Shown here piece by piece: positions 1 through 19,028 of a DNA stretch of 64,000 nt. The stretch is from a virus: the IMG/VR virus record IMGVR_UViG_3300029513_000230, positions 1-64,000 of that record; one strand, written 5' to 3'. Position numbers and translations under genes: made by a program. Each line of letters starts with the position of its first letter. The stretch's first letter is position 1. The notes beneath the pieces were generated by a model. That model was not told where the DNA came from, did no database searches, and saw only the letters and a list, made by a program, of their open reading frames with translations.

Positions 1-3000
1 TTAATATTCTCCCACTGATACTATTTGTCCAATGTGGTTAATTCGGATCTTGACAACACTATTACCAAAAGAAAGTGTTTTATATTGTTTATAAGCAATA
101 TCTTTCAACTCTTTCATATCTTTCACTGTTGTTTCCAAATGATGTCTAAATTTATAATCTCGAACAACATTATTTCCATACATAACTTTTGACATAGTCT
201 GCACCCTAAATAAATTCGGACTAATCATTGCATAATTATCCGGATTCAACAAATCCACCTCCTTCGGATTGAAGCCTGTCTTTTCATTCGGGAACACGAA
301 ATATTCATTCTGCTTCATGCTAAACAAAAATTGCCAACCTTCACTTTTTCTGTAATCCTTATCAATAATAGGAAGTCCTAAATTAGCCCGTGTTACAGCC
401 TCAAAGAAGGGGACAACCACCTCGTCCAGTTCATACATCAGATTACCATCCTCATCAAACGTCACCTGTCCTTTCTTGTCTAAAACAGGTTTACGATAAA
501 TAGCCACATGATGGTTGTTTCCGGTATTTACAAAATCCACAGGGATTTGTTTTCCATTTTCATCCCATATCGGATTCCCATTCTTATCTTTCTTCACGTG
601 TATCGATTGGGCATTATTGATTCCTCGGATGCTAACCCGCTTGATACTTATCCCCTTTTCCTTATTCAGCCATATCGGATTTTCCCAAAAATTAACAAAT
701 GCCTTTTTGGGATCTCCACCGTATTCTTTCAAACGCCGTTCTAAAATAGCACGTACCTTTACATCAACTACTTTATCCACATTCAAAGCAGGATCGACCG
801 GTTTTCGGATAGTATAAATAGTTTCAAATTCAACTGTTTGTACCTTCTCCGGAACTCGTATGGTCTGATACTTATCAGCATAAAGCGGATTCTTTTCCAA
901 TGCATTTTTTCCTGTAAATGCTTTCTTTGGATCATTACCGAATGTTTCCAACCGTTTAAGTAAGGCATTTCGATAAGCCCGTTTACTCACAGTCGCTATT
1001 TTAGCCGCATCAAAAGAAGCATTCACCTTTTCTATTTTTGTCACATATTGTTTGTGACTACCATAAACCGTTTCCAAATGCAACTGACCTCGCGGAGTTT
1101 GCTGTATCTTCGTATTTTCACCCTTTCTCTTTTTTGTTCGATTAACATTGACAGTCACCACCTTGTTCTTAGCTTTAATAGATACCAGCAGTTTTTCCAA
1201 ATGCTGTTTGGCTTCTATCCGGAATTGCTCCAATGGAATAGGAGGCAAAGCTCTTCCTTTGTCAAAATAACGGGTCTTGATACCTATTATATTCGTATGG
1301 TTTCTATTGCCTGAATCTTGTGCCGCATTTTTATTATTGAAATACTGAATAAACGCATCCTTTGTAAAAGCTACCGTCAGCGCATCCATCGCATGATGCC
1401 GATGGTCATTCCTTTTTGTCCAATCCTTTATTCTTTTGATTTTTCTTCCGTCCTTATCTTCGTATGTTTCCACAAAACCCAAGGCTTCATATTTAGGCAG
1501 GTTCAGTTCTTTCATTACATCCACCAATTGCCAGTCTTCACGCAATTGATCTGTAATGGAACCGGTAGTTGCCACTACTCTACGGCAGATTTCGTTCAAC
1601 ATAGCGAGTGCTTTTTTCGCTATATATTGTGTATTTCTCAAATCCCTATCAATGAAACCATCCGGTATATCCTTCTGTTCCATTTTCAATTTCCGAAGTT
1701 TCGCCTTTTTGTCATTGAACAAGCTTTCGCAACGATTTATATATTGTTGCAAGCCTTCTTCTCCATATTTTTCTTTTACAAAATCATAAGCGGTCTTATT
1801 TCCCTTTTCTATATTAATAGCCTTATACTCCAATGTCTTGTTAGATAAAGAATCATCAAAAAGACGGGATTGTGGAATAATATGTTCTATATCTATCTCC
1901 TTACTGAAAATCTTTTCTTTAGGTATATATTGATTGGAATACAATGTTTTATATCCATTATCTTTCAACTCTTCATAAAGTTTGTAACGGATAATATCAT
2001 TGCGGCTCACGTTCATCATACCAAATTCATCTTGCAACAATTTACGGATCTCCTCATGCTCACGGGTACTCTTTGCGATAGCTTTCGTCAGTTCCTCACG
2101 TTCTTTGGCACTCTTCTTTAATTCACGAGCCAATTCCACTCGGATTTCATCAGGTTTTCCATACGTATCAATGATTGTATTGATTACATTCACCATCTGA
2201 CTCAAAATCTTTTCAACCACCGGATTTCGGAGACTGTTTTTAGGAAGAACCTCCAGCTTGCCCTTTAAAACCTTATTTTCTATCTCCTCCTTAGTCAGTG
2301 AAGATTTGGAATGACGATAACCGGCATATTCACAAGCCACATCATACAGATTACCCTCTTTCAAATAGGGTAAAATCCTTTTGATGGCTTTCGCGCTCAA
2401 ACTTCCGTAATCATCTTGAAACGAAAGACTGGCTAGCTCTACAGCATATTCTTTCTCAACTCCGCAAAGTTGCATGATCTTTTCAATCAGTTTGCCGTTA
2501 CCGGTCGACGTATTATCTCCTTCAAAAGAATACAACAGATGCCAAAGTCTGAAATAAGGTTGCATCTCGAGCTCTTTCCCCTCTTTGGTTAAGTCAATGG
2601 TAAACAGATTCGTATTCCAACCTAAATCGGTAAAGATAGTTCTTAGCTGTCCGATTATCTCATCTGCTGGTTTCTTAAAATCCAACGGTTCGTAGCCATA
2701 CTTTTCTATCATTTTGCTATAGGCAGAAAAGAGAGAAAACCCAGTACGATTTCCATCTATTTGTTTGAAGTTCAAATCCAATTCCTGTGGATTTTCAAAT
2801 AAGAGCTTCAACACATCTGCTTTCTTCATGTTTTCTTTTATCGCAAGTTCTCTTGCCAGTATTTCTTTTTCTTCTGGATACAAAGCCCTACTTTCGCTTG
2901 CCGACAAAGCATTTCTTTTCTTCTCTCTTCCCAATACCTTTATGTCATTCAATGTCTGCCATACCTTAAATTCCTGAAACAATGGATGCGAACGAGGTAT

Positions 3001-4275
3001 CACCTTGCATCCTATGACTTTGGTCTGTTTCTTTCCATCCTTTTCTACTACAATCTCCAACCTTTCAAACTCACAGAAACTAATCAAGCCTTTCTGACTT
3101 TTCAGACGTCGTTGGTAAAAGATGATCATATCGCGAATCTCTTTTTTCAATTCAGCTGTCAATTCCTTATGAAATTCTGCCTGCTTTTCCCAAATTCTAT
3201 CAAATTCATCCAAATAATCCTGCCGATAGAATACCATATTGCGCAAACTTGCATGGGGATTCTTGTCTAACTCAGCCATCTGATACTGTCCGACCGTTTG
3301 ATGATTAAAGTATAACACTTTGCTCCTATCACTAATGGCTCCCAAATAACCACTAGACGCATTTATCTGACCATTGATCTCTTGCAAGACTACGGCTATC
3401 TCTTCCAAACCTAATTGTTCAGTAAGAGCTTGCGCACGCCAACGATAATTTTCCTTTTTCAGTTCATACCCCTTAGTCGTCCGTTTAAGACCGACAAGTT
3501 TACATTCTTTTTCTATCGTTTCATTCTTTGCTTCTCTGTCATTCCAGCCAACCACTTCTTCTTTCCAAACAAAATAGTTAGCCAAGATAGCCCATGTCTG
3601 GCTTCTGTTTTTTCCTTTGATTTCTTCTTTGGCGGCATCACAGAAAACATCAGGATGAAATTGCTTTTGAACACTCCATATTCTATCCAACTCTTCTTGC
3701 AAATCAGAACGGTAAAAGTCTGGCAAAACTTTCTTGCCCGATTCAAGTAACTGCGAACAAAGTTGCCCCGGAGTCAAATCCTCCTCATACAGCTTTTTAG
3801 CAATCTCCATTCCATCAATCAAAACTCCATCTTCTTCCTTTTTTACCTTTCGACTACTTTTATATCCACGTTTTTTATTAATCATCAATAAGACACGGGA
3901 TAGTTCCTCTAAAGAAATCTCTTCTTCAGCAGCTTTAGCCCGTAAACGACAGGTTTCAAACGTAGTTCTGTTTCCTTGTTCCGAAAGGATAGTTTCGTCG
4001 GTAATAAAACCCAGCTCTTTCAAAAATTCAACCAACGCATCACGACGTAATTTATATCGCTGCAAATTACGGCGCATACTTCTTTTAAGAGTTCTTTCCG
4101 CATTTGTAGTGATACTTTTCCCTTTTTCAAAGTTCTGCGTTTCATCTACTGTCAAAGGATTTACTCTCACACCTAATCGGATGATTGACGAGACTTCCTC
4201 ATCTGTTTCAGCTTCGTTCACCAACGCCCACCCTATACTATTTGTCCCTAAATCCAAGCCTAAAATCCTTTTCAT
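1..4275 (-). CDS. cas9: Cas9 endonuclease, type II-C-like, complete (1424 aa)
   Basis: N-terminal RuvC-I motif ILGLDLGTNSIGWAL; HNH motif EIDIEHIIPQS...N; RuvC-III HHAMDALTVAF; length typical of Bacteroidetes Cas9. Stop codon sits at the window edge (1-3). Confidence 0.9.
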   Translation of the reverse strand: MKRILGLDLGTNSIGWALVNEAETDEEVSSIIRLGVRVNPLTVDETQNFEKGKSITTNAERTLKRSMRRNLQRYKLRRDALVEFLKELGFITDETILSEQGNRTTFETCRLRAKAAEEEISLEELSRVLLMINKKRGYKSSRKVKKEEDGVLIDGMEIAKKLYEEDLTPGQLCSQLLESGKKVLPDFYRSDLQEELDRIWSVQKQFHPDVFCDAAKEEIKGKNRSQTWAILANYFVWKEEVVGWNDREAKNETIEKECKLVGLKRTTKGYELKKENYRWRAQALTEQLGLEEIAVVLQEINGQINASSGYLGAISDRSKVLYFNHQTVGQYQMAELDKNPHASLRNMVFYRQDYLDEFDRIWEKQAEFHKELTAELKKEIRDMIIFYQRRLKSQKGLISFCEFERLEIVVEKDGKKQTKVIGCKVIPRSHPLFQEFKVWQTLNDIKVLGREKKRNALSASESRALYPEEKEILARELAIKENMKKADVLKLLFENPQELDLNFKQIDGNRTGFSLFSAYSKMIEKYGYEPLDFKKPADEIIGQLRTIFTDLGWNTNLFTIDLTKEGKELEMQPYFRLWHLLYSFEGDNTSTGNGKLIEKIMQLCGVEKEYAVELASLSFQDDYGSLSAKAIKRILPYLKEGNLYDVACEYAGYRHSKSSLTKEEIENKVLKGKLEVLPKNSLRNPVVEKILSQMVNVINTIIDTYGKPDEIRVELARELKKSAKEREELTKAIAKSTREHEEIRKLLQDEFGMMNVSRNDIIRYKLYEELKDNGYKTLYSNQYIPKEKIFSKEIDIEHIIPQSRLFDDSLSNKTLEYKAINIEKGNKTAYDFVKEKYGEEGLQQYINRCESLFNDKKAKLRKLKMEQKDIPDGFIDRDLRNTQYIAKKALAMLNEICRRVVATTGSITDQLREDWQLVDVMKELNLPKYEALGFVETYEDKDGRKIKRIKDWTKRNDHRHHAMDALTVAFTKDAFIQYFNNKNAAQDSGNRNHTNIIGIKTRYFDKGRALPPIPLEQFRIEAKQHLEKLLVSIKAKNKVVTVNVNRTKKRKGENTKIQQTPRGQLHLETVYGSHKQYVTKIEKVNASFDAAKIATVSKRAYRNALLKRLETFGNDPKKAFTGKNALEKNPLYADKYQTIRVPEKVQTVEFETIYTIRKPVDPALNVDKVVDVKVRAILERRLKEYGGDPKKAFVNFWENPIWLNKEKGISIKRVSIRGINNAQSIHVKKDKNGNPIWDENGKQIPVDFVNTGNNHHVAIYRKPVLDKKGQVTFDEDGNLMYELDEVVVPFFEAVTRANLGLPIIDKDYRKSEGWQFLFSMKQNEYFVFPNEKTGFNPKEVDLLNPDNYAMISPNLFRVQTMSKVMYGNNVVRDYKFRHHLETTVKDMKELKDIAYKQYKTLSFGNSVVKIRINHIGQIVSVGEY

Positions 4276-4335
4276 AGTATGTTATCTTTACATTTTCCCA
4301 AATATAAAAATTTTATTTCAGAAACACTTGCACGC

Positions 4336-4445
4336 AAGCATTCCATTTCATATATTTGTCATACTAAAATGAAGCAAATCACAATAAGGATTATTCCGTT
4401 GTGAAAACATTAGGTTCCCTCGCCCTTCTGCGGGGGATTTTTTTA
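4336..4445 (+). ncRNA. putative tracrRNA, divergent from cas9
   Basis: ~45-nt anti-repeat-like segment (4340-4384), then AAUAAGGAUUAUUCCGUU, which parallels the SpCas9 tracrRNA nexus AAUAAGGCUAGUCCGUU. Ends in a 7-bp GC hairpin CCCUCGC/GCGGGGG plus U7 (4419-4445). No overlapping ORF. Confidence 0.55.
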
Positions 4446-4777
4446 TGCTACGAAGTTCTAAAATCAGCCTAAATGCCAGCTTGGTAGAAACCCGTGGAAA
4501 GGACAGTATATCTTCTATGCCACTTGCAGTATATATTAAATGACAAAGTAAGTAGTACTTACTTTTACGGCATATTCCTCAATCCTGTCCATTCCTAAAA
4601 TCACTTGTCACTTTTGGGGTAGTTAAACAACTTTACTTGTCAATAAACTCATGATCCTCCTAGCTTACTTGTCACTCTCTGATAAAGCCTACCAAAAAGC
4701 CTGTCATCAAGAATGGACAATGGATATACCAGAGTGATCCATATTCTCGGCGTACAAATGTAAGGAATCAAAAAGAA

Positions 4778-5626
4778 TCAGGGTCTTTTTCGCCAAAGAT
4801 TTTTCCCCGGCAGTTTGCCTTTATACACCTCCATCGGGCACTCCATTCCGATGCTCATATGAGGTCTTCGGTTGTTATAAAAGTCAATCATACGATTGAT
4901 CTCATTGATCGCCTGTTCTTTATCCCTGTACATTTCCTGCTCGTATATCCATTCGACCTTGAAGATCCCGTTCTGTCTTTCCGCCATGGCGTTGTCTGTC
5001 GGCTCATATCCTTCTGTCATGCTTATCCGTATGTGATGCTCCATGAGGCAGCTGACGTAAGCCTCGCTGGCGTATTGTGACCCCCTGTCCGAGTGGTGTA
5101 TGGTACCGCAAAGGTTGCCGCCTCCGGCGATCCGGATCGCCATGCGCAAGGCCTCTGTCGTATGCGAGGCGCTGAGACTGTCGGATAGGCACCAGCCCAA
5201 TACGGCGTGCGAATAGGCGTCGGTGACAAGATGCAAGTACAACACGTCCCCCAATATCCACACGTACGTGATGTCCGACACCCATATATGGTTGGAATAC
5301 CGCGCGTCTTTTCCCTTGATAAGATTGGGGTACCTTTTATAGACATGATTGGAGTCTGTCGTACGCCTACGTTTGTTGGGATTGAGCTTAAAGCCTTTTG
5401 ATTCATAAACCTTTAAGAACGAGTCTCGCCCGAGGGTCACAGCATGTCCCAAATCCTTTTCCAGTAAATGGAACAGCTTGAAACCTCCGATACGGGGACA
5501 ACAAAGACGATAATAGCCTATCATGTCAGCAAGAAGCTTGACGCGTTGTCTCTCCGATACATCCGCCTTCATGTTCGCGTAATACCATTGGCGTTTCTTT
5601 CCAAACAGCCCGCAAAGGGTAGCCAC
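4778..5626 (-). CDS. IS3-family transposase OrfB (DDE integrase core)
   Basis: Integrase-core motifs WVSDITYV ... HSDRGSQYAS ... E typical of rve/DDE transposases. GTG start, presumably expressed as an OrfAB fusion. Confidence 0.85.
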   Translation of the reverse strand: MATLCGLFGKKRQWYYANMKADVSERQRVKLLADMIGYYRLCCPRIGGFKLFHLLEKDLGHAVTLGRDSFLKVYESKGFKLNPNKRRRTTDSNHVYKRYPNLIKGKDARYSNHIWVSDITYVWILGDVLYLHLVTDAYSHAVLGWCLSDSLSASHTTEALRMAIRIAGGGNLCGTIHHSDRGSQYASEAYVSCLMEHHIRISMTEGYEPTDNAMAERQNGIFKVEWIYEQEMYRDKEQAINEINRMIDFYNNRRPHMSIGMECPMEVYKGKLPGKNLWRKRP

Positions 5627-5658
5627 ACTCTCATGGGGATACTCCTCACGTAACGCCG

Positions 5659-6039
5659 TTACTGTTTGGCACCATCTTTTCTGAATATACTGATGCCTTC
5701 TTCCTCTTCCGCTATCTCTATCATCTTCTCGAAGGCACGGCTACGCATCTTCTCCAGCTCCAAAGAACGACGCAATTCCTCTATGCGCTTTTGAAGGGAC
5801 TCCATATCTGTCAAATCCGATTGCTTGGGAACCATCTGTAACCTCTCTTTTGTTTCTGATGGCAAAGGTAACTGGTCCGATCCCACTGGGTATTCTTTTA
5901 GCCATCTATATATGCAAGGAGGGCTCAAAGAATATTTCTTCGTTATCGCATACTTGCTCATTCCGCTACTGTAATACTCGCGTAACACGGATAATTTAAA
6001 GGGTTCCGTGAACACTCTTTTGGGCTTTCTTTTGATCAT
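5659..6039 (-). CDS. IS3-family transposase OrfA (HTH)
   Basis: 126 aa, HTH-like N-terminus and leucine-zipper-like C-terminus typical of IS3 OrfA; immediately upstream of orfB in the -1 frame. Confidence 0.8.
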   Translation of the reverse strand: MIKRKPKRVFTEPFKLSVLREYYSSGMSKYAITKKYSLSPPCIYRWLKEYPVGSDQLPLPSETKERLQMVPKQSDLTDMESLQKRIEELRRSLELEKMRSRAFEKMIEIAEEEEGISIFRKDGAKQ

Positions 6040-6195
6040 TTCTATACTTTTTAGCCCCTTAAAAGTGTCAAGCTATTTCAGGACAAGACACAGTCGGAAA
6101 AAGAAAGAACCTCTTGTCGATCCCTCCCCCCAAAAAAGTATCTTAAGTACATCGGCTCACGCACCTAAGATACTTTGCCAACGAAGTTATGACAC

Positions 6196-6224: not shown

Positions 6225-6227
6225 TCG

Positions 6228-6270
6228 TGATCGGGCTGGGATTCGAACCCAGGACCCACAGCTTAGAAGT
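6228..6270 (-). tRNA. partial tRNA (3' half from anticodon loop to acceptor end; loop CUUCUAA suggests Arg-TCT); putative prophage att core
   Basis: Minus strand reads ...cttctaa gctgt gggtc CTGGG TTCGAAT CCCAG CCCGATC A. Canonical T-arm and acceptor 3' strand, but the 5' half is replaced by unrelated sequence. Confidence 0.5.
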
Positions 6271-6382
6271 ATTTCTCCATTTTGTATCGTATCGATTTAT
6301 ACATCAAATATTTATTATCACGTTTTAACAGGGCAAGGATACGCTAAAGAACATCATATCATTTTTGCGTATGGCTTTCTCG

Positions 6383-7180
6383 TTAAAATCTCACGACTTT
6401 AGGCTTTTTCTGTAATACATAATATAAAGCCCTCACGCTATCTAGCGGTAAAGAGAAATCGGAAAACTCTGGAGATGGGTTTAGTGAGTGCAACGTTATC
6501 TTACCCTCGTCCATATCGCAGCCTGTCATCTGCTTTATGAGGACGGATGTCCCAAACACGACAACCCAATAAGGATGATCCTTATATCGCAGCCCATCTC
6601 TCCAATGCGATCTATCCAGCTCCCTAACAAGGACGACATCGCCTTCCTCAAAACTCTCTCTCGTCCCGTTGTCCATGCTGTCCCCTTTAACCTCAAAAGC
6701 TAAATATCTCCCATGGACAATCCGATCCCATTCGAAAGACTCGGTCTCCCAATCCTCCTTATCCGGATCAAGACGATCGCTTTCGTTAGCAAACCTGCCA
6801 TAAGCGCAAAACGGCACCTTGCTGACAGTCATACGATATCGACCATTTCCTAAGTCATAGAATTTAACGCCATTATTATTCTCAATTAAGAAATCTCCTT
6901 TTTTATCAGCAGACGCAGACACAGCTTCGACAACCACAGGAGAAGATTTTAGCATATCACCCTCTCCCGTAAAAAGCCATCCAGGGTTAACCGAGGGAAA
7001 GGTTGTCAGTATTTTATCCAATACCTTTTTACCATTATCCCTATTTATCCAATTTCCAACGACCTGCCTACTTACTCCTACCTTATCGGCAAAATCCGAA
7101 TTTGACTCACAAAAATGTGTGATAACTTTTAAAATCCTATCTCCGTTAGCTTCCATATTCATATATTTGTTTACACACAT
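6383..7180 (-). CDS. CI/LexA-like phage repressor (HTH_XRE + S24 peptidase)
   Basis: N-terminal HTH (ADKVGVSRQVVGNWIN); C-terminal S24 signature GDSM ... K (EVKGDSMDNG ... LIKQ). Confidence 0.8.
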   Translation of the reverse strand: MCVNKYMNMEANGDRILKVITHFCESNSDFADKVGVSRQVVGNWINRDNGKKVLDKILTTFPSVNPGWLFTGEGDMLKSSPVVVEAVSASADKKGDFLIENNNGVKFYDLGNGRYRMTVSKVPFCAYGRFANESDRLDPDKEDWETESFEWDRIVHGRYLAFEVKGDSMDNGTRESFEEGDVVLVRELDRSHWRDGLRYKDHPYWVVVFGTSVLIKQMTGCDMDEGKITLHSLNPSPEFSDFSLPLDSVRALYYVLQKKPKVVRF

Positions 7181-7405
7181 CCACTATAAATGATGTAGTA
7201 ATGATTATTCTGGCATGACTCAACAATATCCCGCAATCCTTCAACGACACAAGCTAAAGCCAATAAATTCAATAACAATATATTAATACCATATGACAAC
7301 ATAAATAATCATTACGTAATAAATATGGTATCAAGAGATAAAAACAGCATCTTTCGCTACATATATTTTAACAATACAAGCCTCATATAGTTAAACTATA
7401 CTTAT

Positions 7406-7490
7406 GTAAACATTATTGTTTAAAACAAACTTGCTATGTTCACATTTTTGTTTACCTTTGCAGTAAACAAAATAGATGAACATTGTTTAC
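7406..7490. promoter_or_regulatory. candidate repressor operators in the divergent early region
   Basis: GTAAACA-n4-TGTTTAA (7406-7423), TGTTTAC-n7-GTAAACA (7449-7469) and a third TGTTTAC half-site (7484-7490), between the repressor gene and the first + strand early genes. Confidence 0.4.
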
Positions 7491-7713
7491 TACAAAAATA
7501 ATAAAACAAATGAATAAAACAGCAATAAAGACAGTAAAAGTTAGAAGCTTAACATCAATACTGAGAGATCTCGGTATTGGAGACACAGTAAAAATCGATA
7601 ATAATATATTGAGTGTCAAGTCTATTGTATGTAGACTAAATAAAGAAGGATACACATTCGTGACTTCGACAAAAGGCTTAGAAAAAGGTATAAAGGTAAA
7701 ACGGGAAAAGTAA
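7483..7713 (+). CDS. hypothetical early protein (possibly starts at Met 7510)
   Basis: 76-aa basic ORF, first + strand gene after the operator region. Confidence 0.4.
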   Translation: MFTTKIIKQMNKTAIKTVKVRSLTSILRDLGIGDTVKIDNNILSVKSIVCRLNKEGYTFVTSTKGLEKGIKVKREK

Positions 7714-7916
7714 TGATAAACGAGGAAGCATTAAAAATAGTCCTTAACGATAAGACCTTTGGGCAAAGGACGGCAGCCTCCATAGTAGGAGGACGTGGAA
7801 GGCTCTACGATTTGGTAGGGAAGGGACTTATCAGATGCGAAAAACCAACAAAATCTCAGAACGGGAAATGGTTTTGTAACGCTTGGGATTGCATCAAATA
7901 CGCCACCTTAAAATAG
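7713..7916 (+). CDS. hypothetical protein
   Basis: 67-aa ORF; start overlaps the preceding stop. Confidence 0.35.
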   Translation: MINEEALKIVLNDKTFGQRTAASIVGGRGRLYDLVGKGLIRCEKPTKSQNGKWFCNAWDCIKYATLK

Positions 7917-7924
7917 GTGGATAA

Positions 7925-8010
7925 CGCCGGGTAGCACGTAGCAGGAAGCGTCCCTCTCTCCTAAAGAGGAGTAGAAATACCCCGTGGGTTCGAATCCCAC
8001 CCCGGTGACC
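7925..8010 (+). tRNA. tRNA-like element (T-arm GTGGG-TTCGAAT-CCCAC, 3' CCA; possible anticodon loop CUCCUAA, i.e. CCT) with non-canonical D region
   Basis: Acceptor pairing CGCCGGG/CCCGGTG; canonical T-loop; encoded CCA. The D-arm and variable region do not fold canonically by hand. Confidence 0.4.
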
Positions 8011-8311
8011 AAAAAAGAGTTCTTTGACTTATTGAGAAAAATCCTTATGGCTATCAAAAGGTATACGAGATATAAACGGGATAAGCGTAAGGTGAAAATA
8101 CAGGAATGGACGATAGTCCTTGCTCCCGATGTAGTTTAATCGGTTCCGGTATTGGATTTATACATATAATTAATAATGTATATATAATAAGTACGATCCC
8201 ATTCGGGTATCCTTGCGGTGGTTGGTAAAGAAGACCGTATCGTACTAAATAATACGACTTTTCCTACGAGTCGTATCTAAGATATAGCAGGAGGTTAATA
8301 CGCCCAAAAGT

Positions 8312-8485
8312 ATGACAGATTGGACAGACAATCATAAGATGACGACAGATCGGAAAGACGGTCAATCCGAGAACTACGGATTTACATTAGTGATTAATAC
8401 TCCCCCACCCGTCTATGATTCGAGTTCGAAACCGTTGGAGGTTGTGGGGGAGCGAACATTAAAATATAAAGAATATGGAAAATGA
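8312..8485 (+). CDS. small hypothetical protein (57 aa)
   Basis: ATG preceded by AGGAGG; below the ORF-track size cutoff. Confidence 0.3.
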   Translation: MTDWTDNHKMTTDRKDGQSENYGFTLVINTPPPVYDSSSKPLEVVGERTLKYKEYGK

Positions 8486-8684
8486 ATTACAAGGAAATAT
8501 CCTTGGCACAGGATTTACCGGCAATGGATTCGAGATCTCTCGAAATCCCAATGTAAGCAGCTTAGACGGTTTTTTCGTTAAAGAAAGATGCGATAGATTT
8601 TCAATGGCCTTTGCCTCATTATGTACAACGATCACTAGCGATAAAATCCATTTAATAAAAACGACAAAATTATTGAGAGTATGA
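8475..8684 (+). CDS. hypothetical protein
   Basis: ORF only. Confidence 0.3.
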   Translation: MENELQGNILGTGFTGNGFEISRNPNVSSLDGFFVKERCDRFSMAFASLCTTITSDKIHLIKTTKLLRV

Positions 8685-8986
8685 AAAAGATCCTTTCTAT
8701 CCTTAGGGGTAAAAAACAGACAGATCGACTGTCAGAGTTAAGGAGTCAAGAGATCATGAGAGCGCTTGACTCGGCGTTAAACAACGTAGAGGAGCAAAAG
8801 GTATTAGCCGACATCCGGTATCACGAGGAGATAAACAACCTAGGTGACGACGGGGTAGATTACAAGAGCAAGATCAATCAATTGATCGAGTATAAGGAGA
8901 CGATTATCAACGCGGAAAACACCATCCAAGCTATCAATGAGATCAAGAACGATCTCGAGAGCGAGGTTGAAGACATCAATCCATGA
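8681..8986 (+). CDS. hypothetical protein
   Basis: ORF with coiled-coil-like composition. Confidence 0.4.
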   Translation: MKKILSILRGKKQTDRLSELRSQEIMRALDSALNNVEEQKVLADIRYHEEINNLGDDGVDYKSKINQLIEYKETIINAENTIQAINEIKNDLESEVEDINP

Positions 8987-9341
8987 TACCATGAATGAGA
9001 TTTATTGGATCACAAGGTTAGATGCCATACAAACGTTGGCGATAATCGCAGTATTTATCTTGGGGATATTTACATTCTTGTATATTCTCTTCTGGATTAT
9101 GGAAGATGATGAAAAAGACAAGTCTAAGTTAAAAAAAATCATCTTAAAATTCGCAGCCTATATATCAATACCTGTTTTTTTACTAGTATTCATTCCGTCT
9201 AAAAGGGACATGTTGATGATTATCGGAATAGGCGGGACTATAGAATATCTCAAGTCTAATGATACCGCCAAGGAGTTGCCGGATAAGGTCATCATGGCTA
9301 TCGATAAGTTATTAGATGATACAATAGAGGAAGAAAAATGA
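8937..9341 (+). CDS. hypothetical membrane protein
   Basis: Two predicted TM helices (ILGIFTFLYILFWI, ISIPVFLLVFI). Confidence 0.4.
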   Translation: MRSRTISRARLKTSIHDTMNEIYWITRLDAIQTLAIIAVFILGIFTFLYILFWIMEDDEKDKSKLKKIILKFAAYISIPVFLLVFIPSKRDMLMIIGIGGTIEYLKSNDTAKELPDKVIMAIDKLLDDTIEEEK

Positions 9342-9610
9342 ATAAGACCGATTAACCAAGTTTTATAACAATGAAAGAAAGAAGAATCCCACCCTAGGAA
9401 ATGGCTAGGGCAGGTAGCTAACCATAATAAATTCATATTATTATTCAGGGTTACAGGGGGGTCGAGTTCCCCCCGGCTACCACATTAGCACTGTTTGAAA
9501 TGTTTATGTGTAATAAAGCTACCAAGACCTTACAATACCGCCGTGAGGCAGGCAATTAGGGAATATTAGTTTTTACTTAAACTGTGCCGGGGTGGGATTC
9601 CCCGGCAAAC

Positions 9611-9671
9611 GCTCCCTTAGCTCAGTTGGTCAGAGCCTTTGGGGTCGCCGGTTCAAGCCCGGCAGGGAGCA
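9611..9671 (+). tRNA. truncated tRNA-like element lacking an anticodon arm
   Basis: Perfect acceptor GCTCCCT/AGGGAGC, canonical D-arm GCTCAGTTGGTCAGAGC and T-arm GCCGG-TTCAAGC-CCGGC, but only 10 nt (CTTTGGGGTC) between D and T arms. 61 nt in total. Confidence 0.4.
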
Positions 9672-9787
9672 CGTTTCACCCTAACGGGTGCTTATTCAAT
9701 CAGAAAATCAGTCACAATTTACAAAGCAGGTCTCCGTCCGTGAGGATATGAGACCTTTTCACATCAAGAAATTTAAATCAACAACAT

Positions 9788-10018
9788 ATGATAAAGAGAA
9801 ACCAAGCATGGTTCTGGAAGATATTCCGGGCCATAAAGAGCATTACCATCTTTACTTTTAGGATGGTCTTAGCTACCGTACTAGGGCTAATGTCAATAGT
9901 GTCAATATTTGAGTGGTACGATAAGCCATTCAATATCCACCTCTTGATCCTAGGGATTATATCAGTTTTTATTGTGGTACATCAAATCGTGATCATGACC
10001 TATGAATCAGAAAAATGA
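9788..10018 (+). CDS. small membrane protein
   Basis: 76 aa, two TM segments. Confidence 0.4.
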   Translation: MIKRNQAWFWKIFRAIKSITIFTFRMVLATVLGLMSIVSIFEWYDKPFNIHLLILGIISVFIVVHQIVIMTYESEK

Positions 10019-10164
10019 TTCCGGGGTATTATACGTGGTACAAGCCCCTTCAAGACTTAACCGCTCAAGGAAAGACTATATACTAGACGAGTTAAAAGAG
10101 CTTAGTAAAGAGGAGCTTATAAAAATAAGAAAAGACATTGTAGAACTAATAAACGATAAATAAA

Positions 10165-11274
10165 ATGGCTGCTATAAAATCTTACAAGGGATTTGACAAA
10201 AATTTAAAATGCCGGGATTTTCAATATGAAATAGGCAAGGAATATGAGATGGATGGAGAGATCAAGGTGTGTAACAGAGGGTTTCACGCTTGCGAAAGCC
10301 CATTTGATGTTTTTGATCACTATACTATGATAGACTCTAGGTTTTGCGAAGTAGAGCAAGACGGGAATATATCCAAGGAGGATAGAGGGACAAAGATTTG
10401 CTCCTCGAAAATAAAAATAAAAGCAGAGTTAAAATTGGCTGACATGATCTATCTTGGAGTCGAATGGCTAAAAGAGATCACATCACCTGAAAAAATAAAA
10501 ACGAGCATAAAGGATAATTCATCCGGCTACGGTGCCAAGATAGGATCATCCGGCTACGGTGCCAAGATAGGATCATCCGGCAACGATGCCAAGATAGGAT
10601 CATCCGGCAACGATGCCAAGATAGGATCATCCGGCAACTATGCCCAGATAGGATCATCCGGCAACGATGCCCAGATAGGATCATCCGGCAACGATGCCCA
10701 GATAGGATCATCCGGCAACTATGCCCAGATAGGATCATCCGGCTACGGTGCCAAGATAGGATCATCCGGCTACGGTGCCAAGATAGGATCATCCGGCTAC
10801 GGTGCCAAGATAGGATCATCCGGCTACGATGCCCAGATAGGATCATCCGGCAACTATGCCCAGATAGGATCATCCGGCGACGGTGCCCAGATAGGATCAT
10901 CCGGCGACGATGCCCAGATAGGATCATCCGGCAACGATGCCCAGATAGGATCATCCGGCAACGATGCCAAGATAGGATCATCCGGCAACTATGCCCAGAT
11001 AGGATCATCCGGCAACTATGCCAAGATAGGATCATCCGGCGACGGTGCCCAGATAGACAGCACAGGCGAAGGCTGTGTCATCATGTGCGCAGGTATTAAC
11101 TCTGTAGCAAAAGCCTCAAAAGGATCATGGATAACATTATCCGAATGGTCTTATTCTGATAAAAAGCAAAGATATATCCCCGTTTGCGTAAAAACGGAAT
11201 TTGTTGATGGGGAGAAGATAAAGGCGGATACATATTACAAATTAGCTGGAGGGGTATTTAAAGAAATACAATAG
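10165..11274 (+). CDS. repeat-containing protein (N-terminal Cys/His-containing domain + 20 x 9-aa IGSSG-x-x-A-x repeats)
   Basis: 369-aa ORF. The central 540 nt consist of a near-perfect 27-bp tandem array. Confidence 0.7.
   Translation: MAAIKSYKGFDKNLKCRDFQYEIGKEYEMDGEIKVCNRGFHACESPFDVFDHYTMIDSRFCEVEQDGNISKEDRGTKICSSKIKIKAELKLADMIYLGVEWLKEITSPEKIKTSIKDNSSGYGAKIGSSGYGAKIGSSGNDAKIGSSGNDAKIGSSGNYAQIGSSGNDAQIGSSGNDAQIGSSGNYAQIGSSGYGAKIGSSGYGAKIGSSGYGAKIGSSGYDAQIGSSGNYAQIGSSGDGAQIGSSGDDAQIGSSGNDAQIGSSGNDAKIGSSGNYAQIGSSGNYAKIGSSGDGAQIDSTGEGCVIMCAGINSVAKASKGSWITLSEWSYSDKKQRYIPVCVKTEFVDGEKIKADTYYKLAGGVFKEIQ
10519..11058 (+). repeat. 27-bp tandem repeat array (~20 copies) inside CDS 10165-11274
   Basis: Unit ggatcatccggc-NAC-GNT-gcc-MAG-ata. 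Variation is confined to three codons (N/Y/D; D/G/Y; K/Q). Confidence 0.85.
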
Positions 11275-11427
11275 TCCCAAGGCATTGCTTATCGGAGGAT
11301 CGCATGAGAGACATCTACATCAAAGACCCCGACGGCGAACCGGAGTACGACGGGGAGGAGGACAACGAGGAATATGAGGAGAGCATGGAAGAGCTTAGGT
11401 TCCTGTTTGATTCTTATAATTGGTAAA

Positions 11428-11584
11428 CCTGCCCTTACGAGGTGCAACCCCGCCCCAGACCGGCAACCGATATCCTAGACAAGTGGTAGGCCATGACGAT
11501 ATCATTGGCCCGGTGGAAAGGGACACGGTAATAAGGGCAGGGCGGCCGATGGTCTTAGTCCGGGTTCGACTCCCGGAGGCTGAC
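11428..11584 (+). ncRNA. structured RNA/tRNA-like element (long-range stem CCTGCCCTTA...TAAGGGCAGG; T-arm CCGGG-TTCGACT-CCCGG)
   Basis: Canonical T-loop GGTTCGACTCC followed by 7 nt + C. No matching 5' acceptor strand found by hand. The overlapping ORFs (11395-11598 -, 11420-11635 +) look spurious. Confidence 0.3.
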
Positions 11585-11604
11585 GAATTTAAATACACGA
11601 TAAC

Positions 11605-12279
11605 ATGGACAAATCAGAAGAGATTGACAAATTAGCGATAGCGTTGGCCAAGTTCCAAGGATCGCTAGAGCAACCAAGCCTCAATTCCGAGGTTGAGGTA
11701 GAAACTAAAATGGGAGGAAAGTACAAGTTTAAATACGCAGACCTATCCGAATGCAAAAGGGCGGCGAAACAACCATTAGCTGAAAACGAACTTGCTGTAT
11801 GTCAGCTAATAGAGGATGATTACTCTATCCGTACCATACTGCTTCATTCCTCCGGTCAATGGATATCGTCCAAGGTAAGGATGCCATCTAATACGGCGAA
11901 CGCTCAATCCATCGGATCGGCCATCACGTACGCCAAGAGATACGCCTTTTGCGCCATCCTAGGCATCGTGGCTGACGATGACGAGGACGCTAACATAGCG
12001 AGCGGTAATTCCGCCCAAAAGGAGCAGCCTAAGGAGCAGCCTAAAAAAACGGCAAACTCCAGAGTAAAGAAAGAGCTTACGAGAGATCATCTAAACAATG
12101 AGAGCGCAATGAAATCCATATCGGAGTGGCTATACAATAAAGAGAAGATAGCCAAGGAGGCCAACCAGCCATTCTCCGTAGAAAGCGTTATCAGCAATGC
12201 TTACATTATAGGAAAGGTAGAGATGGATTCTTTCGTAGAGATATATAACAACTATAAAATAAACAATAACCTGTCATGA
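11605..12279 (+). CDS. erf: ERF-family single-strand annealing recombinase
   Basis: Conserved ERF core ...SAITYAKRYAFCAILGI...; acidic and Gln-rich C-terminal tail. Confidence 0.75.
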   Translation: MDKSEEIDKLAIALAKFQGSLEQPSLNSEVEVETKMGGKYKFKYADLSECKRAAKQPLAENELAVCQLIEDDYSIRTILLHSSGQWISSKVRMPSNTANAQSIGSAITYAKRYAFCAILGIVADDDEDANIASGNSAQKEQPKEQPKKTANSRVKKELTRDHLNNESAMKSISEWLYNKEKIAKEANQPFSVESVISNAYIIGKVEMDSFVEIYNNYKINNNLS

Positions 12280-12755
12280 GCAAAGAACTAGAGCTAAGCG
12301 GCAAGACCCCGCTAACGAAAAGCGATATCGAGGCTTTATCAGTAGACCTTTTGAACCCGGTACTAGAAGGAGAGGTAGATCCCGTATCACACGTCGTCAA
12401 GTTAAAGGCGATGCAAGAGACCATCAAGAGGACGCTGGACGATGACCGGATGAAGGACGCCGTCCTTTCCGAGATCGAGAAATACGGGAAGGAGCGCTCT
12501 TGGAACGGGGCCACGGTCAAGATAAAGGAGACAGGCGTATCCTACGACCACTCCAATTGCAATGATCCGGTCTACGCTAGGCTGATCGAGGAAAGGATGC
12601 TTCTCGATGCCAAGATAAAAGAACGGGAGGCGTTCCTGAAGACGGTGCCGGATAATACCACGGTCGTTGATGACGAGACCGGGGAGATATACACGATCCA
12701 TCCGGCGATAAGGATGGCTAAGATGTCATACTCTATAACATTCAACAAAAAATAA
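12276..12755 (+). CDS. hypothetical phage protein
   Basis: ORF overlapping the erf stop (ATGA). Confidence 0.5.
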   Translation: MSKELELSGKTPLTKSDIEALSVDLLNPVLEGEVDPVSHVVKLKAMQETIKRTLDDDRMKDAVLSEIEKYGKERSWNGATVKIKETGVSYDHSNCNDPVYARLIEERMLLDAKIKEREAFLKTVPDNTTVVDDETGEIYTIHPAIRMAKMSYSITFNKK

Positions 12756-12852
12756 TCCACGCATGCCGTGGCTACGGGACGGTGGTTATCCCCGCCGTAG
12801 CGAATAACCGACCGCCCCGCTTATAAATCTAAAATTTAAAATCATAAACATT

Positions 12853-13158
12853 ATGGCGAATTTATACGGCTCAATCTGCTTGAGCGACATACCGAAGGAG
12901 TTGATGAAAAAAGTAATGACGGCCAAGGGAGAGAAGATCTTCCTCAATATCTCGATCGGGGAGAAAAAAGAGCCTGTCACGTTCGACAACCGCACCTATA
13001 CGCATTATGTGTCTTGCGCCCCAAGGAAAGAGGAGCGAAAGGAAGGTGTTTATTACGGCATAGGTGACTTGATGGAATCCACGTTCAAGAACAACATCCC
13101 CTCACCGGAGGATATCAACAACGCCCCATCGGTCGATGATTCGGATCTCCCCTTTTAA
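12853..13158 (+). CDS. hypothetical protein
   Basis: ORF only. Confidence 0.45.
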   Translation: MANLYGSICLSDIPKELMKKVMTAKGEKIFLNISIGEKKEPVTFDNRTYTHYVSCAPRKEERKEGVYYGIGDLMESTFKNNIPSPEDINNAPSVDDSDLPF

Positions 13159-13160
13159 TC

Positions 13161-13595
13161 ATGGAACTATACTTGCTCAACACCGCCAGCGGATTGAGGC
13201 CATGCTATGATTCCGACTATGACGAGAAGAAAAAGCTCAAGCTAGGCAAGATCTACAAGGCCAAGATAACGCTGGCACGGAACATAGATTTCCATAGGAA
13301 GTATTTCGCCTTGATAAATTGCGCATGGTCTTACCAGAACGAGAAGACCACGGCGCATTTCAAGGAGAGCGTGGAGTGCTTCCGGAAGACTGTAGAGATC
13401 GCCGCCGGGCATTGCGATACGGCCTATAGTATATCACGTAAGGAATGGATAGAGATCCCGAAGTCGATAGCCTTCGACAAGATGGACGAGGCCGAGTTCA
13501 TGGATCTCTACGAGCGTGTGAAGGACGTGCTTTTCTCGGTATTCCTTCGGGGGATATCAGAATACGATTTCATGAGAAACCTATCTAATTTTTAG
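13161..13595 (+). CDS. hypothetical protein
   Basis: ORF only. Confidence 0.45.
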   Translation: MELYLLNTASGLRPCYDSDYDEKKKLKLGKIYKAKITLARNIDFHRKYFALINCAWSYQNEKTTAHFKESVECFRKTVEIAAGHCDTAYSISRKEWIEIPKSIAFDKMDEAEFMDLYERVKDVLFSVFLRGISEYDFMRNLSNF

Positions 13596-13881
13596 TCATG
13601 AGAAAAAGCGACAGGCCTCCAAATTACCTTATCAATAAGATCGTGAGGCATGCAAACATTATTATCACAGCCCCTTATGGCAGCGTCAGATACATGGATG
13701 CGGCCAGACTCCTTAAAAAGGAGGTCAAGAAGCTAGAAACCTATAAGAAAAATGAGAGATCTTAAATACTGCCTCAATGAGGATTGCTGTAAAAGACATT
13801 GCCTCTGCCATCAACGGCAAAAACATTGGAAAGACCCGTCTAAAAAAGATGGGGAAACTGTAAGGCCGGAATCGGCCTTAC

Positions 13882-14535
13882 TTGACGGGAATACTCCTTG
13901 CAAAGGGTATGTCCCACAATACGAAAGAAGAAAATATAATATTAAATATTAATGATATGGGAAAGAGAAAAGAAGGTTCTTACAACTTTGACAAGAACGT
14001 ACAAATGTTTTTGGCTTGCGCAAAGGACGATTACCGTCCCGCTATGGAATGCGTATATTTCAAGGGAGATTGGGCCTACGCCAGTGACGGACATATTATC
14101 GTTAAAAACAGGATATCCGAATGCTCAAACCTTGACGAAGCCATGATACAGGCGTTAGACGGCAAATTACTGCATAGTCTATTTTTTAAGGACATGTTGA
14201 AATATGATGACATCCTTATCTCTGATGACGGAATAGAGTGCCATAAGAAGAATGACAAGGCGTTCTTCTATTTCGCGGATGAGAACTTAAAATATCCAGA
14301 CGCAGAGAAAGTGATACAAAATTATCAGGCAAAACCCAGCGTTCCGCTTCCTCAAATATCCTTTAACATGGGCTTATTCGACATAATGAGGAAAGCTTTA
14401 TATGAATGCGAACGATGCACGGCTACTTTCAAGGGCGTTAACGATGCCATCATTTTTGACAGCATGGTAGAAGACGTAAGCAGTATCGGATTAATCATGC
14501 CTTTATACAATGAGGCACTAAACCAACAAATATGA
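13882..14535 (+). CDS. hypothetical protein
   Basis: ORF only. Confidence 0.45.
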   Translation: MTGILLAKGMSHNTKEENIILNINDMGKRKEGSYNFDKNVQMFLACAKDDYRPAMECVYFKGDWAYASDGHIIVKNRISECSNLDEAMIQALDGKLLHSLFFKDMLKYDDILISDDGIECHKKNDKAFFYFADENLKYPDAEKVIQNYQAKPSVPLPQISFNMGLFDIMRKALYECERCTATFKGVNDAIIFDSMVEDVSSIGLIMPLYNEALNQQI

Positions 14536-14691
14536 GAAATTTTATCAACAAACATTGGGTATTGATATTGGCCATAGCCTTTATTCCGGCAGGGAACAGA
14601 GTTTTTAACCATGTTGACGCATGGCTAGGAATAGTCATTATGTTAACTAGTTCATTATTTATAATTTACAAACTATTTAATTTTATCAAGA

Positions 14692-15504
14692 ATGAAAAGG
14701 ACAAGTTTTAAGTTTTTTACTATAGCGATAATCGCTATGGTATTTTTATCCTCTTGTGAACGTGTAGCACCTAATTACGCTGGGGTATTGATGGAAAATT
14801 ACGGGAAACAAGGGAAGGAGGATTTCAAGGTCGTATCAGGCAGGGTTTCAACTTGGGAATGGGGCACGGAATTATTTCAAGTCCCGCTATTCGACCAACG
14901 AGGCGAGTTCGGAAGCCCTGTCACGTTAAAAGCCGCAGACAATACGGAGTTTAACGCACGCCCCACTTACTCCTACAAGGTTATCAAAAACAGGGCAATA
15001 GACGTTGTTTTCGATAACAAGCACATAGACAAGGCCGATACGGAATCAGGCAAAGACGGTTTCATGCAATCATTGGAGGATAACATACTAGAACCTCGCA
15101 TCTATGACCTGATCAAGGAGGAAAGCCGTAAACATAAGACCGACAGCTTAATGGCAGACGGAGGTTCGCTTCTTTTTGAGAAACGCCTTGAGCAGATTGT
15201 AGATAAGGAATTCGAGAAAAGAGGTCTTCAATTACTCACATTCTCGGCGCAATTAGAGTTTTCCAAGGCGGTTCGCGAGAAAATTGATAGTAGGAATGAA
15301 GTTAACACCAATATTTCGGTTTTAGACCAGCAGATAGCGGAGCAACGGAAACGCAACGAGTTGGAGCAATTGAAAACGGAACAAGCGTTAATCACCTCGA
15401 GAGGATTGACTAAAGAAATTCTTTATAAGCAGTTTATCGACAAATGGGATGGTCGTACCCCCATTTATGGAGCGATACCCGATTTAATAAAGATTCAGAA
15501 CTAA
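14692..15504 (+). CDS. lipoprotein, possible SPFH/band-7-like
   Basis: Signal peptide plus lipobox (FLSSC); C-terminal coiled-coil with EAE/Q-rich segment resembling SPFH-family tails. Confidence 0.45.
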   Translation: MKRTSFKFFTIAIIAMVFLSSCERVAPNYAGVLMENYGKQGKEDFKVVSGRVSTWEWGTELFQVPLFDQRGEFGSPVTLKAADNTEFNARPTYSYKVIKNRAIDVVFDNKHIDKADTESGKDGFMQSLEDNILEPRIYDLIKEESRKHKTDSLMADGGSLLFEKRLEQIVDKEFEKRGLQLLTFSAQLEFSKAVREKIDSRNEVNTNISVLDQQIAEQRKRNELEQLKTEQALITSRGLTKEILYKQFIDKWDGRTPIYGAIPDLIKIQN

Positions 15505-15586
15505 GGATATTAATATTAGAGTGTGTTTTTCATGGTATTAGATTTAGTTTTTATCCCCGCCGTCCGTGAGGATACGCGGGGATTTC

Positions 15587-15664
15587 GGGCGGTAAGTATT
15601 CCGGGATGAAACGTTACGGAGTGCGCATGACGTAAAGAGGCCGGTTCGATCCCGGCACCGTCCA
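15587..15664 (+). tRNA. tRNA-like element with canonical T-arm/acceptor but aberrant anticodon region
   Basis: Acceptor GGGCGGT/ACCGTCC with one G-U pair; T-arm GCCGG-TTCGATC-CCGGC. The middle forms a TTACG/CGTAA stem with a 12-nt loop, i.e. no canonical 7-nt anticodon loop. Confidence 0.35.
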
Positions 15665-15809
15665 CGAATAACAAACATCTAATTATGGAAACAATACAGA
15701 ATTTAGATCACTTGACAATGGCCATGTACCTTATCACCGCAATACTCGGACTTATAGCAGTGATCTTGGCCATATTCTTACTAATAAACGATAAAGAAAG
15801 GAGGAATCC

Positions 15810-16307: not shown

Positions 16308-16465
16308 TATGGCGAAGAAGAAAGACGAGCAAGAAAAGGTGAAATGTGGCGATTGCGCCAACGGACATCCTCACAAGGGGCTATGCGTTTGGTGCATCAT
16401 ACATGACGCTGGACGGGTAGCTAACTCCACGAGATTTTGTAACACTTTTAAAAAGAGAAAATAAT

Positions 16466-16786: not shown

Positions 16787-16952
16787 TATATGGATAAGGG
16801 TTTCATAATGCTCTCTCGTAAGTTTTTTTCTAATGAAATGTGGGAAGCAGCCCGGACATTCTCGGAGTGCGAAGCGTGGCTTGATCTAATACAATCGGCA
16901 CGATTTGAGGCAACCGACACGATCGAATGTATCGGAGGTAGAGAAATAACAT

Positions 16953-19027: not shown

Positions 19028-19028
19028 C

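Follow-up and report, generated by a model that had tools for sequence, protein, structure and literature searches.

The type II-C CRISPR-Cas systems of Neisseria meningitidis and Campylobacter jejuni carry only cas9, cas1 and cas2, and their array runs opposite to the cas genes (PMC3737331); each repeat has its own promoter, new spacers enter at the cas-proximal end and the protospacer-adjacent motif (PAM) lies on the 3′ side of the target. In the Bacteroidota, the Bacteroidetes subcluster of Cas9 proteins goes with repeats of up to 48 nucleotides (nt), with II-C arrays again transcribed opposite to the cas operon (PMC3737331), and in Flavobacterium II-C systems promoters lie within the repeats and a TAnnTTTG box precedes cas9 (PMC10309648). 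Here we analyze a cas9 locus found at one end of a 64,000-nt stretch of DNA (IMG/VR record IMGVR_UViG_3300029513_000230, positions 1 to 64,000; hereafter, the window). An earlier reading of the letters alone (the original prediction) had reported there a cas9 gene and a divergent gene like that of a tracrRNA (trans-activating CRISPR RNA), and had treated cas1, cas2 and the array as missing. The locus is a member of the described lineage, i.e. Bacteroidota type II-C with 47-nt repeats. Positions 1–4445 are very probably the tracrRNA–cas9 end of a complete, canonical locus of this kind, the host being most likely Parabacteroides distasonis, and cas1, cas2 and the 47-nt repeat array would lie just past window base 1.

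As judged from the window and its close relatives, the locus shares with both the N. meningitidis and the C. jejuni systems the restricted gene set (cas9, cas1 and cas2 only), the orientation of the array opposite to the cas genes, a predicted promoter in each repeat, spacer entry on the cas-proximal side and a 3′ PAM. It differs from them in its much larger Cas9 (1424 residues), its 47-nt rather than 36-nt repeat, its predicted promoters of the TAnnTTTG type, its PAM (NN(T)TTT) and its tracrRNA gene, which lies upstream of and divergent from cas9 and has a short nexus like that of Streptococcus pyogenes (Spy). The resemblance to the Bacteroidota II-C systems of Flavobacterium columnare and F. 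psychrophilum (Fp2Cas9) includes the Cas9 subcluster and the long repeats (PMC3737331), the repeat promoters, the transcription of the array towards its variable end, the TAnnTTTG box before cas9 and the insertion sequences beside the locus (PMC10309648), whereas the genus and the PAM differ from those of Fp2Cas9 (PAM NNAAAG). While the Flavobacterium study left the transcription of the tracrRNA open (PMC10309648), the promoter and the extent of the tracrRNA can be read here from about 40 loci.

The cas9 gene is complete, as the original prediction had stated: the longest open reading frame (ORF) within positions 1–8000 occupies 1..4275 on the minus strand and encodes a protein of 1424 residues that contains the Pfam domains RuvC_III (1e-53) and HNH_4 (2e-17), begins with a readable DLGTNSIGWA motif near its N-terminus and scores 506 bits (cut-off 100) against NCBIfam TIGR01865 (type II CRISPR RNA-guided endonuclease Cas9). 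Its stop codon corresponds to window bases 1–3 and the gene reads leftwards, so that any gene downstream would fall off the left edge. The remark that the 60 kb on this side contain no cas1, cas2 or array is thus true yet uninformative. An exact look-up found the Cas9 protein in 10681 blocks of public assemblies, and it ranks with the commonest Cas9 sequences of public gut assemblies.

Sixteen related contigs (numbered with an L below), eight from non-lysogens and eight from lysogens carrying the prophage at the same junction as the window, were read past this edge. Fifteen carry a Cas9 that is identical to that of the window or differs from it by one residue, and the remaining one (L006) has a single-base frameshift in cas1. 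In all sixteen, cas9 is followed by cas1, cas2, the array and a thioredoxin gene, in this order, which makes a missing array very improbable. The cas1 gene starts 115 nt downstream of cas9, encodes 309 residues (TIGR03639 cas1_NMENI, 323 bits) and is intact in every contig except L006; cas2 encodes 110 residues, and the array begins about 100 nt past it and extends to the thioredoxin gene. Neither csn2, typical of type II-A, nor cas4, typical of type II-B, is present in these sixteen contigs. The use of cas1 and cas2 as the sole adaptation module is the type II-C arrangement; it is seen in the relatives, these genes being off the window here. Over positions 1–6269, the window is 99.8–100% identical to the related contigs.

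The arrays of the relatives comprise 3–22 copies of a 47-nt repeat, which reads GTTGTGATTTGCTTTCATTTTAGTAACTTTGAGCCATTGGAAACAGC on the strand that corresponds to the CRISPR RNA (crRNA), separated by spacers of 29–31 nt (the L002 array holds an assembly gap). Next to cas2 they differ from one another, and at the opposite end they have old spacers in common, together with a degenerate terminal repeat. In the window, none of the 24-mers of this repeat was found on either strand with up to four substitutions, showing that the window itself holds no array. The repeat that had been predicted from the tracrRNA gene, and proposed as a search query, matches the actual repeat of the relatives only over its first 24 nt, with one indel; its second half would be promoter DNA.

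Directly upstream of cas9, and divergent from it, lies the predicted tracrRNA gene (4362..4444, plus strand, about 83 nt). The anti-repeat (4362–4385) pairs with the repeat of the relatives: its 24 nt form with repeat nt 1–25 a duplex of 12 bp, one bulged U and 12 bp, and 23 of the first 26 positions are paired. On the same strand, it is followed by a conserved nexus, GGAUUAUUCC (4388–4397), whose loop variants in relatives keep the stem, by an invariant segment, GUUGUGAAAACAUU (4398–4411), and by an intrinsic terminator consisting of an 8-bp stem recognized by a terminator scan (4416–4437) and a run of seven T (4438–4444). The divergent plus-strand tracrRNA with an AAUAAGG-type nexus and a terminator that had been proposed from the window is therefore upheld by the pairing with the repeat, by covariation and by its recurrence at about 40 loci. 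The proposed 45-nt anti-repeat is correct for positions 4362–4385, which pair, and not for positions 4341–4361, which belong to the predicted promoter region and are not conserved as sequence in other species.

The relatives were collected by scanning one genome per species with Cas9, which gave 56 related Bacteroidota loci with 52–83% identity, the nearest Cas9 proteins being those of Parabacteroides massiliensis (83%) and of a Parabacteroides metagenome-assembled genome (81%). About 40 of the related loci have the same module upstream of cas9 and divergent from it, in which a TAnnTTTG box is separated by a few bases from an anti-repeat of about 24 nt, and the core AAUAAGGAUUAUUCCGUUGUGAAAACAUU and a terminator hairpin come next. 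The core is nearly invariant over its 29 nt, while the sequence of the terminator hairpin differs between lineages. Repeat and anti-repeat covary in about 20 species of Bacteroidota: CAUUUUAGU is found with ACUAAAAUG where other species have CAAAUUAGU with ACUAAUUUG, GAUUUGC is found with GCAAAUC and GAAUUGC with GCAAUUC, and, in a third case, CAUCUUAGU goes with ACUAAGAUG. This covariation is the strongest evidence, among the comparisons between genomes, that the predicted tracrRNA is functional. The 17 strains compared show no difference over the 175 nt at 4276–4450.

A duplex-energy scan of the window with the repeat (6394 sub-windows; mean −15.4 kcal/mol, sd 3.8) ranked the tracrRNA site first, at −33.3 kcal/mol. 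Three other duplexes, at 11681, 21481 and 19141, came close (−31.7 to −33.1 kcal/mol); they are G–U-rich and interrupted. Because of these near-equal values, energy is not decisive on its own, and it is the covariation that decides. The same three sites were also considered as phage-borne mimics of the repeat and rejected, given their interrupted, G–U-rich duplexes and the lack of any repeat 24-mer with up to four substitutions.

The tracrRNA resembles that of S. pyogenes (Rfam RF02348) in having an anti-repeat, an AAUAAGG-N-UCCGUU nexus and a 3′ terminator hairpin. It differs in that it has no clear stem-loop 2, its anti-repeat begins at the predicted transcription start and its processing is presumably that of II-C systems. 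The covariance-model search suggested at the outset gave a mixed answer: at relaxed thresholds, RF02348 aligned over its full length to 4356–4443, with the UAAGG...UCCGU nexus matched, at only 22 bits. The Rfam family of the repeat, CRISPR-DR49, gave 19 bits on the minus strand of 4341–4385. At gathering thresholds, Rfam reported neither a tracrRNA nor a CRISPR repeat in the window, and only an RT-17 RNA. A literature search on a P. distasonis tracrRNA gave nothing useful.

Covariation within the RNA is a separate matter: RNAalifold found none on 25 tracrRNAs, since the core is nearly invariant and the terminator is unaligned. In the lowest-energy fold of the free tracrRNA, UCACAAU, at the 3′ end of the anti-repeat, pairs with GUUGUGA, the same 7 nt with which the CRISPR repeat begins, and the resulting helix (4379–4404) encloses the nexus. 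According to this fold, the helix would compete with the pairing of the crRNA; as it is invariant in the 25 relatives, covariation cannot judge it. A longer tracrRNA was also considered, with a distal 5-bp UUCCA/UGGAA pairing that would favour the longer anti-repeat of the original prediction, and was rejected, the upstream sequence being unconserved in relatives.

The conserved boxes suggest how the RNAs of the locus might be produced. A candidate Bacteroidota −7 box, TATATTTG, lies on the minus strand at 4299..4306 and ends 23 nt before the ATG of cas9. A TAnnTTTG box is found no more than 90 nt upstream of the cas9 ATG in 36 of 48 relatives, 31 of which have it ending 19–30 nt before the ATG. 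A second candidate −7 box, again TATATTTG, lies on the plus strand at 4351..4358, at the box position conserved in relatives: the strict TAnnTTTG motif occurs on the tracrRNA side in 33 of 40 distinct upstream sequences and ends 25–29 nt before the end of the anti-repeat in 30. The motif is also present inside the repeat, at nt 24–31, in 25 of the 26 repeat variants. These boxes are probably promoters, the tracrRNA starting at about 4362. The 86-nt intergenic region would thus contain two back-to-back TAnnTTTG promoters, one for cas9 and the other for the tracrRNA of about 83 nt, whose first 24 nt would pair with repeat nt 1–25, leaving one bulged U; after the anti-repeat would come the Spy-like nexus (AAGGAUUAUUCCG), the invariant linker and the intrinsic terminator. 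With a TAnnTTTG box in the repeat, each repeat could give rise to a crRNA that continues through the following spacer into the repeat beyond it, so that crRNAs would be antisense to the cas operon, each arising from the box within the preceding repeat.

The PAM was read from thirteen independent protospacers, of which four lie in the window and the other nine come from named phages. Among the 3′ flanking positions, a T occupies positions 4 and 5 in all thirteen, position 6 in twelve and position 3 in ten; the 5′ flanks of the same protospacers carry no comparable signal. The 3′ signal defines the PAM as 5′-NN(T)TTT-3′ and confirms the polarity of the crRNA. The complex formed by Cas9, crRNA and tracrRNA would accordingly be expected to cut protospacers flanked by 5′-NN(T)TTT-3′ on their 3′ side.

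Beyond the tracrRNA gene, the locus is bounded by an IS3-family insertion sequence and then by a large prophage, as the original prediction had it. The insertion sequence (4583..6098, minus strand, approximate ends) contains orfA (5659–6039; Pfam HTH_Tnp_1) and orfB (4778–5626; Pfam rve and rve_3), and a local alignment of its ends reveals imperfect terminal inverted repeats of about 35–40 nt (about 4585–4625 and about 6055–6098). It sits at the same place in all related contigs. It is followed by the 3′ 43 nt of a tRNA-Arg(TCT) gene (6227..6269, minus strand), which forms the junction with the prophage as attachment (att) core and displaced end of the tRNA; the window departs from the non-lysogen contigs at 6270, within this tRNA. 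Together with the IS3 copy, the CRISPR locus makes up an accessory island that fills about 10 kb from tRNA-Arg(TCT) to the thioredoxin gene. Indeed, lysogen L075, which has the prophage in the same tRNA, is devoid of the whole island, i.e. of the IS3 element, tracrRNA, cas9, cas1, cas2 and array (L075 4932–5340 compared with L001 8083–18106): there, about 113 nt separate the tRNA from the thioredoxin gene. As tRNA-Arg is the att site of the phage, the position of the prophage beside the CRISPR locus is a coincidence of neighbourhood. The host is most likely P. distasonis, to judge by spacers that match the P. distasonis phages PDS1, PD482P1, PD491P1, PD691P4 and YZ-2015a.

The original prediction had also raised the question of whether any spacer targets the prophage. 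The phage family is indeed a target of this system. Among the 75 unique spacers of the eight non-lysogens, four from one strain, L007 (CP103176.1), match the prophage of the window, and all four protospacers are followed by NNNTTT: spacer 15 matches 14681..14710 (plus strand, 30/30, 3′ flank AGTTTT), spacer 7 matches 14571..14599 (plus strand, 28/29, AGTTTT), spacer 20 matches 10301..10329 (minus strand, 28/29, GGCTTT) and spacer 4 matches 30480..30509 (plus strand, 28/30, ACTTTT). A degenerate protospacer for spacer 14 of L001 lies at 26376..26405 (minus strand, 26/30), with a 3′ flank, GAATCG, that contains no PAM. Self-targeting, on the other hand, was not observed. Lysogens with the same junction were found through the 257-residue form of the repressor and a 369-residue ORF of the prophage, the repressor protein occurring in 192 blocks. 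Among the ten lysogen places listed, eight have intact cas9, cas1 and cas2, with arrays of 7–17 repeats, and none of the spacers of these eight lysogens matches the prophage of the window or any related prophage fragment compared. The eight include L067, whose sequence has 99.88% identity with that of the window over 17 kb. An anti-CRISPR (Acr) protein is consequently not required to explain lysogeny, and the simplest reading, from what is seen in these eight relatives, is that lysogeny reflects a lack of immunity rather than anti-CRISPR activity.

A spacer common to L006 and L008 (their spacers 2 and 5, respectively) matches the major capsid gene of the prototypical crAssphage at 29 of 29 positions (Carjivirus communis BK010471.1, 84553–84581, 3′ flank GAGTTT). 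An early host prediction for crAssphage is said to have cited a spacer in 'Bacteroides sp. 20_3', so that the L006/L008 match may be already known.

For the case that a spacer does target the prophage, an Acr protein of the AcrIIC type had been anticipated among its small ORFs. The two candidates put forward, 46469–46947 and 25530–26238, matched nothing in Pfam, PHROGs or the PDB sequences. The prophage does encode a relative of a described Acr protein, not from an AcrIIC family but from the Tad2/AcrIIA7 family (DUF2829). The gene lies at 31264..31575 on the minus strand and adjoins the endolysin gene; its ORF spans 31264–31647, and the likely start at 31575 gives a protein of 103 residues. 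This protein matches end to end PDB entries 8kbi (HgmTad2, 'Inhibitor of Type II CRISPR-Cas system'; E 1e-53) and 9kzr (AcrIIA7; E 4e-54), with 79 of 102 residues identical (77%), and scores 86 bits against the Pfam family PF11195 (Tad2-like). No other Acr-like match was obtained when the remaining small ORFs of the prophage were compared with PHROGs, Pfam and PDB sequences, a few spurious-looking ORFs having been left out of the PDB queries.

Like HgmTad2, meAcrIIA7 and pdAcrIIA7, members of a family encoded by Bacteroidales phages, the protein of the window has 103 residues and the headless form, and it keeps the contacts for glycocyclic ADP-ribose (gcADPR) and for the cyclic dinucleotide cGG. 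All the residues listed as contacting gcADPR or cyclic dinucleotides (bioRxiv 10.1101/2023.11.15.567273) are identical, namely W21, N22, G23, R31, S47, F70, M76, A78, V84, N85, W87, L88, S90, T92 and D93. In the RNA groove, K58, K66, K71, K93 and R101 of pdAcrIIA7 correspond to K, E, K, K and K: three are identical, K66 is replaced by glutamate and R101 by lysine. Mutation of K66 in pdAcrIIA7 abolished binding of the single-guide RNA (PMC13133391), and a glutamate at this position amounts to a charge reversal. Published results on the family conflict even for SpyCas9. HgmTad2 sequesters gcADPR and cyclic dinucleotides, and no anti-Cas9 activity was found for it (bioRxiv 10.1101/2023.11.15.567273). 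In a later study, by contrast, headless AcrIIA7 is reported to bind type II-A tracrRNAs at stem-loops 1 and 2, ahead of ribonucleoprotein assembly; the only type II-C tracrRNA tested, from Haemophilus parainfluenzae, was not bound (PMC13133391). The gene of the window belongs to the lysis/late region, and no regulator of the Aca (anti-CRISPR-associated) type is found next to 31264–31575. The best-supported role is that of a signal sponge acting against Thoeris or against a cyclic-oligonucleotide-based antiphage signalling system (CBASS). An effect on the neighbouring Cas9, a type II-C enzyme where the published AcrIIA7 assays used II-A enzymes, is possible but unsupported, and we consider it unlikely. 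It is likewise conceivable, though unlikely, that the AcrIIA7/Tad2 proteins encoded by Bacteroidales phages have as their natural target the Bacteroidota type II-C tracrRNA, whose nexus is of the II-A kind (AAGG-N-CCGUU) and accompanied by a hairpin, unlike the Haemophilus II-C tracrRNA. If this were true, the window would contain a natural matched set: a headless, 'active' protein, carried by a temperate phage that this Cas9 targets in other strains and that has integrated about 1.8 kb from the tracrRNA gene that the protein would sequester.

Several points weigh against a complete, working locus in P. distasonis. The presence and the content of the array in this exact genome are extrapolated from relatives, and the stretch read from the closest contig (L066, 99.995% identical over 21 kb) ends inside cas9. 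The species name derives from the hosts of the matched phages and from the nearest Cas9 proteins (Parabacteroides, 81–83%), not from a taxonomic marker. The RF02348 match is weak (E 0.38, at 22 bits for a gathering threshold of 70), and the RNA starts, the processing by RNase III and the interference activity are deduced from sequence. With no array visible in the window, one could also imagine an orphan or decaying system, in which cas9 and the tracrRNA were kept and cas1, cas2 and/or the array were lost after the arrival of the IS3 element and the prophage, leaving a Cas9 that is non-immune or repurposed. Loss of the locus does occur in the species, as seen in L075, and cas1 is frameshifted in L006. 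Yet the L075 loss took cas9 as well, i.e. was all-or-nothing, and the parts in question would in any case fall off the window. In addition, cas2 and the array are present in all sixteen related contigs, and cas1 is intact in all except L006, including the eight lysogens with the same prophage junction, and both the IS3 element and the prophage are on the tracrRNA side of cas9, away from cas1, cas2 and the array. An orphan system is therefore most improbable. Even less credible, to the point of being negligible, is the idea that the tracrRNA gene is a degenerate solitary repeat left by decay or duplication of an array rather than a functional RNA gene. tracrRNA genes are thought to derive from repeats, and CRISPR-DR49 does align, at 19 bits, with the minus strand of 4341–4385; however, position and orientation upstream of cas9 are fixed in about 40 species, the element combines a conserved promoter box of its own with a terminator and with a core that hardly varies over 29 nt, changes in the repeat are followed by its anti-repeat, and its sequence is the same in 17 of 17 strains.

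A further possibility grants that the locus is complete and supposes that its own array targets the prophage, this self-targeting being tolerated because the AcrIIA7/Tad2 homologue silences Cas9 by sequestering the tracrRNA. This system does exert CRISPR pressure on the phage family, the prophage protein is 77% identical to meAcrIIA7/HgmTad2, AcrIIA7 is reported to block Cas9 through stem-loops 1 and 2 of the tracrRNA (PMC13133391) and the nexus of the present tracrRNA resembles those of type II-A tracrRNAs. Against this, the eight lysogen arrays contain no spacer that matches the prophage. Moreover, HgmTad2 behaved as a nucleotide sponge without Acr activity (bioRxiv 10.1101/2023.11.15.567273), and its ligand contacts are all conserved here; AcrIIA7 did not bind the H. 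parainfluenzae II-C tracrRNA and K66 is a glutamate here; and the gene is in the lysis/late region without an adjacent Aca-type regulator. We thus regard tolerated self-targeting as very unlikely, and a complete type II-C locus in a host that lacks immunity to this phage remains the preferred reading.

The prophage itself occupies 6270..64000 and leaves the window at its right edge inside the large terminase gene; its full length is estimated at about 62 kb. It is a temperate tailed phage, in which PHROGs matches identify an S24 repressor (6383–7156), the recombination-type proteins Erf and NinB, a resolvase, an HNH nuclease, a replication initiator with a DnaC-like loader, a methyltransferase, several regulators of the Ant/Rha type, an endolysin (31632–42), a reverse transcriptase, tail proteins, a tape measure, the major head protein, a protease and the portal. 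In a 59-kb contig, L069 (ENA ERZ27278225), which has the size of a phage genome, the repressor end is joined to the integrase, the small and large terminase and the portal genes, and the junction crosses the same 45-nt tRNA core. This is an attP arrangement, which indicates an excised or free phage form with a genome of about 62 kb; L069 thus suggests that the temperate phage also exists in an excised or virion form in a gut metagenome. When 24 kb of the prophage were compared with named phages by megablast, the only match was a 1.1-kb Ant/Rha stretch, which is 93% identical to Bacteroides fragilis phage BF1-TP2. A spacer common to four lysogens targets BF1-TP2, outside this stretch.

Other features of the prophage were recorded in passing. 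A diversity-generating retroelement extends over 32906–36753: it comprises the reverse transcriptase gene (32906–34000, minus strand; phrog_1423, 2e-104), the Rfam RT-17 RNA (33955–34040; 43 bits, above threshold) and a 117-nt template repeat (34082–34198) that is 85% identical to the variable repeat (34644–34760), the latter lying at the 3′ end of the gene for a 712-residue tail protein. ARAGORN detected an unusually long (87 nt) tRNA-Arg(CCT) at 7925–8011 on the plus strand, in the early region. The 369-residue ORF (10165–11274) contains tandem repeats at 10519–11056, with self-alignment offsets that are multiples of 27 nt; its length varies in lysogens (products of 261–369 residues), and it holds one of the protospacers targeted by L007. 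An accessory region (45634–47763 and 50807–51903) interrupts the virion genes and contains Ant/Rha-type regulators, two small ORFs without matches, a helix-turn-helix protein (47150–47428) and a weakly HicB-like protein (47521–47763).

The main value of this analysis is corrective: the 'missing array' results from where the window stops, and the locus would be a standard type II-C system that is very widespread in gut Parabacteroides. As by-products, the comparison gives a cross-species anatomy of the tracrRNA for this Cas9 lineage, with its promoter box, 24-nt anti-repeat, nexus and terminator, and an empirical PAM, NN(T)TTT, drawn from 13 protospacers. The AcrIIA7/Tad2 homologue offers a natural setting for the published disagreement as to whether such proteins are inhibitors of Cas9 or bind only Thoeris/CBASS signals. 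Finally, a concrete phage–host pair emerges: four spacers of strain CP103176.1 are directed against a temperate phage by which its sister strains are lysogenized, and this same phage integrates at the tRNA next to the CRISPR island.

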